A stretch of DNA of 64,000 nucleotides from Escherichia coli (lineage in GTDB: Bacteria > Pseudomonadota > Gammaproteobacteria > Enterobacterales > Enterobacteriaceae). Shown here one piece after another: positions 12,501 to 15,500 of the stretch. The stretch is from NCBI RefSeq assembly GCF_044324785.1, contig NZ_CP172128.1; one strand, 5' to 3'. The first letter of the stretch is position 1; the number at the start of each line of letters is the position of its first letter. The position numbers are program-made.

Positions 12501-15500
12501 TCAGTAATATCCGTCATGAGCTCTCAGCCTCCTCCTTCGTATTTCCGTCAGAAACACAAACGCCCCGCAGAGAAAATTCGCCAACATTCTCCTTTTTAAT
12601 GGCGCGCAATGCATCGCGGCAGGCCCGTTCGGTATGAAAGGCCTGGCTGTGCACCGCCAGTGTGGGCTGACGGGCATCACCGGAAGAGACATTAAAGGGC
12701 GATGAAAGCCAGAAAATCAGTAGCCACATGCGTCACACCTCGTCCTTTTTATGCGGGTATCTGGACAGAATATTGAGCGCCTGTAATGGCGCTTCATGCA
12801 TTTCACGGATACAACGGGCATCGGTGATATTTTCCCGGTAATGTGTGGTTTCCAGCATCATATGATGCATATGGAGCATCCGGGCCAGGGCTGCGCGGAG
12901 TTCTTCAATATGTTGTTCATGGGAATGCTGGCGGGGCTGTATCCGGCAGAGAGGGATAACCTCCACATCATCCGGGTGCGCGCGAAGCCACGCGTCAGTG
13001 ACTGCAATGTCGTCAGTGTAAAACCATGTGCCGGATGTCCCGTTGGCCAGAAAACGCATTTTCCAGGCTTCTGGGGTGGCGGTTGTGTTGTTATCTTTCA
13101 TGGTGCCACCACTCATTCAACAGGCTTAATGCTGTCCAGGCGCAGTCTGCTCAGACTGTCGTGGCTGCCACAGCGGCGTCCGGTGCTTTTGCTGTAGCAC
13201 TCCTGCCCCCTGATACACCATGCCGTTGGCGTTTCGTAGAGGCTGACACGTCGGGTTTTATCTTTAATGATGAGAAGCCCGGTGTGAGTTTTTGTCTTTT
13301 TCATCGGTGGGGTACAAACGCAGAAATTTTGTTGTCATTACATCATCAGTTTTAGCCTGCAGAGACGCTGAAAAATCAGCGTTTTCAGACCCTGTTCAGG
13401 TTAGTGAATATTCTTGCCTGGCCTTTCGGCAATATCAATCCCCTGGAGTTGCATGGATATGCCCATACCGTTGACCATGAGGCTGTTTATGGACTGAACA
13501 CCACATTTCATCATGAGCTCAAAACACAGTGCGCTGAGCATGCCGAGCGCCTCTTCTGAGGACTGGCAGTGTGTATTCAAAAGAGTATTGAACTGTTTAA
13601 CGATATCCGGGGTGAGGCACATACTTTGTATTTCGTCTTTCATGACTACTCCTTATTTCAGGCATTTTGCATTTTGGGTTAATAACACGAAGCCCGTAGA
13701 CGGAAAACCTGAGGCGTTCGGATGGGATAATTCCCGGGTATTTTCCTGTTCCGGATACAAAAAATATAACGGCATGAAAAGGATTGTGGCGGACAGGAAA
13801 ACAATTAGAATAGCTGCGGGCGCTTGAGGCTGTATGCCGAAAGCGTTTTGTGGACGGCATGCAGCAGAAAGCCCCAGGCGATCTTTTTATCAATCAACCC
13901 AGGGCCCACTGTAATGCCTCAACAACATTATAGTAGCCCGATGACGGCCGAAAGGCAATGGAGGGGCTGCGATGCCACAACGAACGTTTTTAATAATGTT
14001 AATCGTCGTCTGTGTGACGATACTGTGTTTTGTCTGGATGGTGAGGGATTCGCTTTGCGGATTTCGTATCGAGCAGGGAAATACGGTGCTTGTGGCAACG
14101 TTAGCCTACGAAGTTAAACGTTAACGGGCAACACGGCGGCAGGACATCTGCCGCCGGATTGTTGCGAAGGCTGACCTCAATGCGCCTTGTTTGTCTTTTT
14201 TACCGGACGATGGATCCCACTCCTCCTCATCAGTTCGTAGCAGAGTGTACTCAGCATGGCAAGTGCAGCTTCTGATGATTTACAGTGTGTATTCAGGAGG
14301 GTAAGAAATTGTTTAAAAACATCAGGGTTTATACTGGTGCTTTGATATTCGTTACTCATAGTATTTCCTTTCAGGTCATTATTACTTCCGGATTTAACAT
14401 GATGTCTGTAACCATAAAATAATGAACGTGTTCCGGGAGTCCTTGCCGTGTAGTTTCCCGTAAAAATACTGTTGTGCATTACATGTCATTAGGTGGAAAC
14501 CGATTGTGGCAGACTGAAAATCGATTAGAATAGCGGCGGGCGCTTGAGGCTGTATGCTGAAAGCGTTTTGTGGACGGCATGCAGCAGAAAGCCCCAGGCG
14601 ATTTTTTTATCAATCAACCCAGGGCTCTACTGTAATGCATCGACAACATTATAGTAGCCCGATGACGGCCGAAAGGCAATGGAGGGGCTGCGATGCCACA
14701 ACGAACGTTTTTAATAATGTTAATCGTCGTCTGTGTGACGATACTGTGTTTTGTCTGGATGGTGAGGGATTCGCTTTGCGGATTCCGTGTCGAGCAGGGA
14801 AACACAGTGCTTGTGGCAACGTTAGCCTACGAAGTTAAACGTTAACGGGCAACACGGCGGCAGGAAATCTGCCGCCGGATTGTTGCGAAAGCAAACCTCA
14901 ATGCGCCCTTTTTTACCTGGATTTCTGCAGCGCGTTTCAGCATAGCATGCAGTTCTGTGCTGATCCTTGCTTCCAGTCGGGCAGTTTGTGTTGCAGATGG
15001 CATGATTTGTACTTCCTGAATATACTGAACGGCAAATTGCCGTATTGTGCTAATTACAGTCTGATACAGGGACGGCAGACAGGCATTCTGCCTGAAAAGA
15101 AAAAGCCGGTTCAGAGAAAACCGGCTGACGGATTACCGTCTAACAGTTGGTCGCTACCTTACAATACTTCTGCAACAGGCACACCGGCAACTTTTTCCCA
15201 TTCTTTAACCCGATACCGAATCATCTGCGGGAAACGCTCTTTGTACTCATATCCACGTGCAGCCATGGTGTGCATGGTGTTGGCCAGCGTCCTTGCTGAG
15301 ATGCCGGAGATTTCAAGAGGGATCATCGGCAGACTCACATAGGTGGTGTGGATTTCCAGCTTGCCGTCTTCAGCAACTGTTCGGGTGAAGTTGTGAATAT
15401 CCAGACCAATCACATCCATGACATTGTTTGGGTAAATGCGCACATACAGCATGGTGCCGTTTTTAATGTCGATCCCGAAATAGCAACTCTTCGAGAATGA

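Follow-up and report, generated by a model that had tools for sequence, protein, structure and literature searches.

Tandem pnd (hok/sok-family) modules in the transfer region of an IncK2/Z plasmid of Escherichia coli

Two complete and probably both functional pnd modules (pndA/pndC/pndB), type I toxin-antitoxin systems related to hok/sok, lie one behind the other in the stretch of E. coli contig NZ_CP172128.1 analyzed here (64,000 nucleotides, referred to as the window), and the arrangement appears to descend from a single illegitimate join. The probability of this reading, which is based on sequence comparison, is put at about 0.8. The pair is placed in the transfer region, between trbA and excA, of an E. 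coli plasmid of the I-complex that belongs to IncK2/Z: the window matches the IncK2/Z plasmid pE16-3, the region is flanked by ExcA, TraY and TrbA, and the repZ pseudoknot found in the window is that of an I-complex replicon.

The two direct repeats span positions 13776–14192 and 14496–14913, are oriented head-to-tail and are ~94% identical. The repeat search of the window returned them as two in-register blocks, 13908–14192 vs. 14629–14913 (285 nt, 96%) and 13776–13905 vs. 14496–14625 (130 nt, 92%), which are separated by a 1-nt indel; the spacing is 720/721 bp. High identity extended from ~13781 to ~14190 in the global alignment, and the SNP table held 24 differences over 417 nt between copy 1 and copy 2. 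A 417-nt repeat with 94% identity is far beyond chance. A preliminary description of this DNA had given repeats of ~405 bp, ~95% identical and ~720 bp apart, at 13782–14907, coordinates that were right to within a few bases. The limits of the repeat are exactly the -35 box and the fold-back (fbi) element. Thus, each copy is a complete transcription unit.

Each copy encodes a 50-residue Hok/Gef-family peptide on the plus strand, as the preliminary description had stated. The pndA1 gene is at 13972–14124 (MPQRTFLIMLIVVCVTILCFVWMVRDSLCGFRIEQGNTVLVATLAYEVKR) and pndA2 at 14693–14845, and the sole amino acid change between their products is I33V. Pfam PF01848 (HOK_GEF) matched residues 7–46 to positions 3–42 of its 42 (E = 2e-12, 47 bits), so that the family support whose lack had been named as grounds for rejecting the claim was found. 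The peptide is identical to PndA of R64 at 45 of 50 residues (90%). Read from the sequence, PndA has a hydrophobic stretch, FLIMLIVVCVTILCFVWMV, at residues 6–24, Cys29 within DSLCG and a polar C-terminus; its length, N-terminal hydrophobic stretch, conserved cysteine and polar C-terminal part are all those of Hok/Gef peptides. The scores against the NCBIfam HokA equivalog NF007290 were 66.4 and 64.9 bits, under the curated cut-off of 89, and those against the Hok subfamily NF007279 were 41.3 and 41.2 bits, under the curated cut-off of 73. Thus, the peptides are not HokA orthologues, and their family assignment rests on the Pfam match and the identity with R64 PndA. They are best filed as members of the PndA branch of Hok/Gef. 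In RefSeq records, including that of pE16-3, the toxin genes are labeled 'Hok/Gef family protein.'

The overlapping mok/pndC-like frame proposed for each copy is open in both. The pndC1 frame (13914–14117, plus strand, 67 amino acid residues from the ATG at 13914) lies within an ORF at 13824–14117 and overlaps pndA1, and pndC2 (14635–14838, plus strand, ATG at 14635) lies within an ORF at 14554–14838 and overlaps pndA2. In both copies, the pndC ATG falls within the stem of the target hairpin. By analogy with hok/mok, pndC would serve as a translational coupler (PMC4147584).

Upstream of the toxin genes, promoter-like sites were found on the plus strand at 13784–13811, where the repeat begins at the -35 box, and at 14504–14531. 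Both consist of TTGTGG, a 16-nt spacer and TAGAAT. The hexamers are identical between the copies, the spacer varies at eight positions, and just two sites in the 64 kb, the homologous ones, fit this pattern (0.01 expected by chance). Their position relative to the start of the Rfam leader at 13818 suggests that they function as promoters. A generic sigma-70 and terminator scan with a 9-of-12 threshold called neither the pnd promoter nor the antisense promoter described below, and only the coding-region hairpin ATCGTCGTCTGTGTGACGAT was called 'terminator-like' in each copy. The hexamers reported here are weaker matches, located by homology of position and not by the generic scan.

The hok-type leaders, at 13818–13974 and 14538–14695, matched Rfam RF01794 over the full model length with 123.4 bits (copy 1) and 119.7 bits (copy 2) against a gathering score of 59. 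Both matches share the strand of the toxin gene and stop at its ATG. The predicted full-length mRNAs, delimited from the Rfam leader and the minimum free energy (MFE) fold, extend over 13818–14190 (pndA1) and 14538–14911 (pndA2). In module 1, the target hairpin is at 13908–13934, with its loop at 13917–13925, and the fbi element at 14176–14187 pairs with 13818–13828; in module 2, the fbi element at 14897–14908 pairs with 14538–14548. The 3' GC-rich hairpin that had been noticed in each copy was recovered at 14134–14156 and 14855–14877. The predicted MFE was -157.9 kcal/mol (z -6.5) for pndA1 mRNA and -166.7 kcal/mol (z -8.8) for pndA2 mRNA, and the fbi pairing between the 5' and 3' ends was present in both the MFE and the centroid structures of both copies. 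Moreover, pndA2 mRNA shortened at its 3' end is predicted to refold and form the tac-ucb hairpin found at the 5' end of the Rfam consensus. Seven inter-copy substitutions fall where the predicted fold is paired, and pairing is preserved in all seven.

On the minus strand, a PndB antisense gene is plausible in each module. The predicted Sok-like RNAs, whose ends are approximate, are PndB1 at 13864–13922, a position homologous to that of Sok of R1, and PndB2 at 14584–14643. PndB1 would begin with a 5' tail whose sequence is complementary to both the start codon of pndC and the loop of the target hairpin; a stem-loop and then UUUCU come next. The predicted minus-strand hairpins, which precede UUUCU in both modules, have energies of -27.5 kcal/mol (z -3.8) for PndB1 and -28.9 kcal/mol (z -5.2) for PndB2, and the two RNAs differ at four positions (the equivalents of 13905+, 13907, 13918, and 13921), two of which are in the 5' tail. 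Promoter-like sites with TTGCCT as the -35 box, a 17-nt spacer and TACTAT overlapping TATAAT as the -10 box are located on the minus strand at 13927–13958 and, identically, at 14648–14679. These homologous sites are the only two matches of the pattern in the window (0.00 expected by chance). No Rfam model covers the minus strand at the predicted antisense sites. The RF01794 'sok' matches were rejected as antisense evidence: being on the plus strand and ending at the toxin AUG, they confirm the mRNA leader and not an antisense RNA. Of the minus-strand antisense RNA expected earlier around each leader, the promoter-like hexamers and hairpins were found roughly at the places guessed, as predictions, and the Rfam 'sok' match belongs to the other strand.

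The modules were compared with known systems. Similar to pnd of the IncI1 plasmids R483/R64, they lie in the trbA–excA interval of the transfer region and possess a leader, an overlapping frame and a 3' hairpin, with ~90% nucleotide identity from promoter to fbi. Different from R64, which has one copy, the plasmid studied here has two, with a truncated small ORF between them, and the toxin differs at five amino acid residues. Similar to hok/sok (parB) of R1, the modules have a stable folded mRNA with an fbi element, an RF01794 leader, a mok-like frame, a Hok/Gef toxin and a cis-antisense RNA gene at the leader, the last being predicted here. Only 17 of 52 residues, however, are identical to R1 Hok, and hok/sok belongs to another plasmid family and is a single copy in R1.

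The pnd and hok modules are classic plasmid-addiction systems. If the pair works like hok/sok (PMC4147584) and pnd of R483/R64, from which the following steps are taken, a weak promoter would produce a stable, highly folded pndA mRNA in which fbi ties the 5' end to the 3' end, which would keep off both ribosomes and antisense RNA. Slow 3' trimming to the GC hairpin would then cause refolding and make the target hairpin and the start site of pndC accessible. In plasmid-bearing cells, the short and unstable PndB, made from the opposite strand, would pair with the exposed region, block translation of pndC and hence of pndA, and mark the mRNA for cleavage by RNase III. After plasmid loss, PndB would decay first, the 50-residue membrane toxin PndA would be made and the cell would be killed. 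Two copies would likely provide a higher or redundant dose of post-segregational killing.

It is also conceivable, but improbable, that only one module is active, that its neighbor is carried along in a decaying or silenced state and that the pair works as a single pnd system. The promoter spacers do differ at eight positions, the copy-2 target loop, read directly, has an A instead of a pyrimidine before the loop U, and pCT, a related IncK plasmid, tolerates the loss of pnd (PMC4083329), so that each copy may be under weak selection only. Every recognizable element, however, is kept in both copies (the sense and antisense hexamers, the pndC and pndA frames, fbi and the hairpins), the Rfam scores are nearly equal, the substitutions at paired positions keep pairing, and there are other plasmids in which one or the other allele is the only pnd, all of which argues against this reading.

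Equally unlikely as the main explanation, though compatible with the reading preferred here, is that the modules are kept mainly for a role other than maintenance, such as abortive-infection phage exclusion or a stress response, and that their copy number is tuned accordingly. Exclusion of phage T4 by hok/sok has been reported, which counts for such a role. In addition, deletion of pndACB from pCT did not reduce stability over ~80 generations (PMC4083329), and a comparative study of IncK2 plasmids cites growth effects of hok/sok at 41–42°C and found a chicken-associated ORF adjoining hok/sok (PMC12987596). No sequence feature points in this direction, however, and pnd of R64 was reported to be needed for maintenance (Furuya and Komano, 1996, as cited in PMC4083329). 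Judging from pCT, pnd may contribute little, or redundantly, to the maintenance of plasmids of this group. A hidden second copy was considered as the cause of this null result and was rejected, because pCT has one copy.

The modules are accompanied by two small minus-strand ORFs, the diverged partner genes of the preliminary description, which are real. The gene divergent from module 1, orfA (13401–13643), encodes an 80-residue hypothetical protein and represents, within the orfA/orfB family, the 'A-type' allele at full length. The ORF between the modules, orfB' (14177–14356), is a truncated 60-residue copy of an 80-residue hypothetical gene. The orfA product was 70% identical to its homologue from pCT and 59% identical to that of pECOED orfB, and the orfA and orfB' proteins were 60% identical over 50 residues. 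Neither matched any entry in Pfam, PHROGs or NCBIfam. A 252-nt ORF downstream of pnd in R64/IncI1 was considered as an orfA/orfB homologue and was rejected, because BLASTP gave no alignment. The orfB' protein matches full-length pECOED orfB to residue 50 and diverges thereafter; the last 10 codons enter the junction and, with it, module 1 at its 3' end. It is 60 instead of 80 residues long because the duplication junction lies inside orfB.

This junction, ...TTTTTTACCGGACGA|TGGATCCC... (14193–14212, breakpoint ~14210), joins the 3' flank of an A-type pnd on the left to the interior of orfB on the right, with a microhomology of only 1 nt. Junction sequences were compared in nine plasmids, with pECOED as the breakpoint reference for orfB; in A-type plasmids the match ends at 14210, and in B-type plasmids it begins there.

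With a 70-nt junction query (E ≤ 1e-12), the tandem arrangement was detected in 38 PLSDB plasmids, compared with 1890 PLSDB records that hold the module, and in 43 of 5426 complete E. coli genomes, where it was always plasmid-borne. Earlier counts of 132, 155 and 79 records, obtained from the coverage of long queries, were rejected as too high, since records with one copy can match both copies in the query. The 38 plasmids came from several countries and hosts, including chickens, humans, wastewater, Klebsiella and Shigella, and all seven array plasmids inspected typed as IncK2/Z. Three plasmids have three copies, NZ_CP075666 and NZ_CP027341 among them, and the first unit of the three-copy arrays contains full-length orfB, not orfA. 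R64, pCT and pECOED have one copy each. In R64 (NC_005014), the copy is directly downstream of trbA, between trbA and excA, which agrees with the single copy given in the preliminary description, and the module has 90% nucleotide identity to R64 and pND12_96 over its whole length. The tandem pair is thus a real but uncommon copy-number variant, with one, two or three copies in relatives, and the earlier remark that it would be unusual is borne out by the counts. No description of tandem pnd in IncK2/Z plasmids was found in the literature; the nearest report is an IncK2 GWAS that flags an ORF adjoining 'hok/sok' (PMC12987596).

Copy 1 has the SNP pattern of single-copy A-type plasmids (pCT and CP088449), and copy 2 has that of single-copy B-type plasmids (pECOED). 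Chimeric modules also exist, e.g., in CP027585 and L014_1/_3. Together with the junction, which is common to all arrays found, these patterns point to one old illegitimate join that was later spread and expanded by homologous recombination. One side of the join would have been a site 20 nt downstream of a pnd module and the other the interior of the neighboring orfB, and a repeat unit of ~721 bp [orfB' + pnd] would have resulted. Homologous recombination within the 417-bp modules would then have moved the array onto different backbones, made mosaic modules and changed the copy number between one, two and three. About 15 modules were compared, a set from which the exact order of the recombination events is beyond reach.

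The preliminary description had favored recent duplication or gene conversion, given the divergence of the partner genes. Such a scenario, in which a ~720-bp unit [small ORF + pnd] was duplicated in situ, the small ORFs diverged fast and gene conversion homogenized pnd, now appears very unlikely and is already largely refuted by the sequence comparisons. The units are collinear, weak homology (~65–70% at the nucleotide and 60% at the amino acid level) reaches into the small ORFs, and modules do undergo conversion or recombination with one another, as is evident from the mosaics. The junction inside orfB, however, truncates orfB, and therefore orfA is not the duplicate of orfB'; no single duplicated unit gave rise to both partner ORFs. 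Moreover, orfA with copy-1-type pnd and orfB with copy-2-type pnd are each found alone in other plasmids with matching SNPs, and the three-copy arrays do not start with orfA. Finally, an identical junction in 38 plasmids of such diverse sources means that the event was not recent in the plasmid studied. Mis-expansion of a single locus by the assembler, for which only the general risk attached to repeats speaks, can practically be dismissed, as the copies differ at 24 positions, their flanks differ, the two-copy structure and junction are the same in dozens of independently finished plasmids, and several finished plasmids are 100% identical over 2 kb.

The leader differences between the copies concentrate in a 17-nt patch (13905–13921) that forms the target-hairpin loop and the predicted antisense 5' recognition tail. 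The loop reads CCUCA in copy 1 and CAUCG in copy 2, compared with CUUCG in R64. The patch haplotypes differed within every array examined, with H1 + H2 in two-copy and H4 + H2 + H1 in three-copy arrays. Similar to zorO-orzO/zorP-orzP of E. coli O157:H7, the modules form a tandem, highly similar type I pair in which inter-copy leader differences cluster in the predicted antisense 5' tail and target loop; in zor/orz, a 3-nt variable patch (V1) in the 5' end of the sRNA prevents cross-repression (PMC3919570). Different from the modules studied here, zor/orz is chromosomal, encodes another toxin family and has divergently encoded, trans-acting sRNAs with 18-nt pairing, whereas the predicted PndB RNAs are cis-encoded and fully complementary. 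Their cross duplexes are also predicted to be very stable, at -98 and -106 kcal/mol vs. -115 and -121 kcal/mol for the cognate ones. That co-resident pnd modules are partly or fully orthogonal, with each PndB repressing only its own mRNA, is a tentative proposal and rather doubtful. If it held, the modules of an array would be addiction systems independent of one another, and recombinational loss of any copy would be punished by killing, which would stabilize the array and the accessory DNA between its copies. The 417-bp modules would at the same time provide mobile stretches of homology through which backbone segments are reshuffled between I-complex plasmids.

Tandem duplication of type I loci is also found in ldr-rdl, ibs-sib and fst, whose copy number varies between strains (PMC2887945). 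Those loci are chromosomal and belong to other toxin families, whereas the pair described here is a plasmid killing module inside a conjugation region. In E. coli of poultry and human origin, resistance genes of the ESBL, AmpC and NDM types are spread by I-complex plasmids, which carry pnd/hok. Some IncK2/Z plasmids have two or three complete modules, whose antisense targets differ slightly in sequence. On such plasmids, knocking out a single gene or 'plasmid curing' directed at pnd may fail, and annotation pipelines and TA-typing PCR schemes will undercount the copies. The locus also offers a simple natural system in which to ask whether nearly identical type I modules cross-talk. It is otherwise an ordinary copy-number variant of a well-understood system, both toxin genes of which are already annotated in public records. 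Elsewhere in the window, a tblastn search with R64 DqlB gave no match at E ≤ 1, and an AgrB-type RNA match was located at 10539–10628.

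The pnd system is classical, and the tandem pnd found here is a real, uncommon copy-number variant of it, correctly recognized at first and of low to moderate interest. Tandem duplication is a known tendency of type I loci (PMC2887945). A literature search found no description of pnd arrays in IncK2/Z plasmids, the nearest report being an ORF beside 'hok/sok' (PMC12987596). The two near-identical direct repeats of the preliminary description were accurately placed: the repeat search aligned 13776–13905 with 14496–14625 (92% identity) and, in register, 13908–14192 with 14629–14913 (96% identity), at a spacing of 720/721 bp, and global alignment of the copies gave a high-identity block from ~13781 to ~14190. 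In the table of variable sites, the copies differed at 24 of 417 nt. Also as described, an ORF scan of the plus strand found in each copy a 50-aa toxin ORF, pndA (13972–14124 and 14693–14845), with an overlapping longer frame, the mok-like pndC, open from ATG 13914 and ATG 14635, respectively. The sole amino-acid difference between the toxins was I33V, and RefSeq already carries annotations of the two ORFs. Their proposed Hok/Gef membership was supported by the Pfam HOK_GEF model (E=2e-12). Identity was 45/50 aa to the Hok/Gef protein of the IncI1 plasmid R64 and only 17/52 aa to R1 Hok. Both peptides scored below the curated cut-offs of the NCBIfam HokA and Hok-subfamily models. By these sequence comparisons, the peptides are members of the PndA branch of the Hok/Gef family and not HokA orthologues.

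E. coli plasmid pE16-3 (NZ_CP119729, IncK2/Z) and its sibling plasmids matched the 2-kb region at 100% identity, and a repZ regulatory pseudoknot at 63839–63988 (plus strand; Rfam, 177.4 bits) fits an I-complex replicon. The gene order was trbA, thermonuclease, HTH protein, three hypothetical genes, orfA (minus strand, 13401–13643), pnd1, orfB' (minus strand, 14177–14356), pnd2, a TacA/DUF1778 fragment, excA and traY. R64 has, as the preliminary description stated, one pnd, which lies immediately downstream of its trbA. Single-copy relatives were of two types: orfA, pnd and a TnsA-like gene (type A; pCT and CP088449), or PEtN transferase, the 80-aa orfB, pnd, TacA fragment and excA (type B; pECOED). 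The match of A-type plasmids to the window stopped at 14210, where that of B-type plasmids began, and the SNP pattern of copy 1 was A-type and that of copy 2 B-type. The junction, in which ...ACCGGACGA is joined directly to TGGATCC..., had a microhomology of about 1 nt and broke orfB after codon 50.

An assembly artefact was ruled out by comparison with other plasmids bearing the same junction. A recent private duplication, which the preliminary description had drawn from the contrast between diverged partner genes and similar toxins, was rejected on the evidence of the junction common to many plasmids and by the A- and B-type SNP patterns. The contrast itself is real, but orfA and orfB' are different alleles that did not come from one duplication, and therefore the partners diverged while the toxins are alike. 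Mosaic modules were found in CP027585 and as the first and third modules of triple arrays. The single pnd of NZ_CP027585 (4287–4712) carried copy-2 (B-type) SNPs in its 5' two-thirds, with orfB upstream, and copy-1 (A-type) SNPs at its 3' end, with the TnsA-like gene downstream; this chimera is direct sequence evidence that I-complex backbones cross over within pnd modules. The simplest reading is a two-step origin, in which one illegitimate recombination would have created the repeat unit of orfB' plus pnd, and RecA-type recombination inside the 417-bp modules would then have moved it between backbones and changed its copy number.

Coverage-based tandem counts were misleading and were dropped, since both copies of the query can hit a record that has just one, and a 70-nt probe spanning the copy 1/orfB' junction was therefore used. 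The probe found 38 PLSDB plasmids, against 1890 PLSDB records with the module, in agreement with the earlier view that a tandem pair is unusual. Among 5426 complete E. coli genomes, 1218 had the module and 43 the junction, which was plasmid-borne in every case. The exact 60-aa orfB' protein, which occurs only with this junction, was on record from 304 contigs, and all array plasmids examined (7/7) were IncK2/Z. The junction was present twice in NZ_CP075666, NZ_CP027341 and NZ_CP129253. In the first two, which are IncK2/Z plasmids of human STEC isolates, three tandem modules with two identical truncated orfB' genes between them were confirmed (3101–4959 and 2380–4238, respectively). Thus, the pnd locus is a copy-number-variable array and not merely a pair. 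In addition, some IncI1 plasmids, such as pND12_96 (NC_019044, ~5005–5140) and ColIb-P9 (NC_002122, 48468–48658), had a second, degenerate pnd leader that is not annotated and lies downstream of the intact pnd at a distance of ~1 kb. Its promoter and target hairpin are retained, as is a tac region with a deletion inside it, but the leader ends before the toxin ORF; it was found in 329 PLSDB records and was absent from R64. Judging from this leader, second pnd copies may be of old or recurrent origin in I-complex plasmids.

Each repeat was a complete transcription unit, as it spanned from the -35 box, which is the repeat's start, to just past the fold-back (fbi) pairing element. The predicted sense promoters (TTGTGG-16-TAGAAT; plus strand, 13784–13811 and 14504–14531) were the only sites of this pattern in the 64 kb. 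The predicted full-length mRNAs (about 13818–14192 and 14538–14913) had fold z values of -6.5 and -8.8 versus shuffles, and their first 11 nt were predicted to pair with 14176–14187 and 14897–14908, respectively. Such 5'–3' pairing is the fold-back-inhibition arrangement of hok mRNAs. The 3' GC hairpins were at 14134–14156 and 14855–14877, and copy 2 mRNA trimmed to this hairpin was predicted to refold at its 5' end, forming the tac-ucb hairpin that the Rfam consensus shows. Seven between-copy substitutions fell on paired bases in the predicted folds, and every one of them kept the pair (G-U/G-C/A-U changes), so that both copies appear to be still under RNA-structure constraint.

Rfam RF01794 matched both leaders at full length (13818–13974 and 14538–14695; 123.4 and 119.7 bits, gathering score 59), the leader being made up of four hairpins (5' tac/ucb, a small one, antisense-target and toxin SD). 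This model carries the name 'sok antitoxin (CssrC)' yet matches the toxin-sense strand; as its matches stop at the toxin ATG, it describes a hok-type mRNA leader. The Rfam check proposed for Sok/PndB RNA therefore returned the mRNA leader instead, which is strong evidence for a regulatory leader and none for an antisense RNA, and 'sok' annotations taken from RF01794 would land on the wrong strand. On the minus strand, promoter-like sites (TTGCCT-17-TACTAT(AAT)) occurred in the window only at 13927–13958 and 14648–14679, followed 3' by stable predicted hairpins and UUUCU; a generic promoter scan gave no call for antisense RNA promoters of either module. The putative antisense RNAs PndB1 (~13922–13864) and PndB2 (~14643–14584) would be about 60 nt long, and their 5' tails would span the loop of the target hairpin as well as the start codon of pndC.

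From homology to hok/sok and to the pnd of R483/R64 (PMC4147584; Furuya and Komano, 1996, cited through PMC4083329), post-segregational killing is to be expected of each module, with a second intact copy probably raising the dose or providing redundancy. Deletion of the single pndACB of the IncK plasmid pCT, whose single copy was confirmed by sequence, did not reduce stability (PMC4083329). Among 14 IncK/Z modules, a small and phylogenetically linked sample, 5 of 17 leader columns in 13905–13921 were variable vs. 6 of 137 elsewhere (Fisher test, p=0.003, post hoc). Three of the five fell in the 9-nt target-hairpin loop, the predicted antisense 5' tail, and the haplotypes of this patch always differed between co-resident copies. 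Cross-repression within the zorO-orzO/zorP-orzP tandem pair is abolished by 3 nt near the 5' end of the sRNA (PMC3919570). Different from that insulation, the predicted pnd cross duplexes were still very stable (-106 and -98 kcal/mol; cognate, -121 and -115 kcal/mol). Orthogonality of the two modules is a possible but not a likely reading.

The 53-aa TacA/DUF1778 N-terminal fragment (minus strand, 14842–15003; Pfam TacA1, E=5e-4, residues 9–31 only) overlapped the pnd2 3' end, was named 'antitoxin' by several sources and was on record from at least 1000 contigs. It is plausibly the chicken-plasmid-associated hypothetical gene adjoining 'hok/sok', initially annotated as an antitoxin, of an IncK2 comparative study/GWAS (PMC12987596). 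Several otherwise collinear array plasmids had ~500 bp extra between pnd2 and excA (their ~3100–3760; window 15003–15158), encoding a small 'HEAT repeat domain-containing protein' whose gene is absent from the window, and excA itself varied among them. Just downstream of trbA, an AgrB RNA match (RF02891; minus strand, 10539–10628) scored 50.4 bits (gathering score 40). Type I toxin loci of the dinQ type have AgrB as their antisense RNA, and in R64 a gene annotated as encoding a DinQ-like toxin, dqlB, is found close to pnd. A tblastn search with R64 DqlB found no match in the window; the AgrB match may mark another type I toxin locus, of a kind other than pnd. Finally, a STAXI RNA match (Rfam, 70.4 bits) was found at 711–868 on the minus strand.
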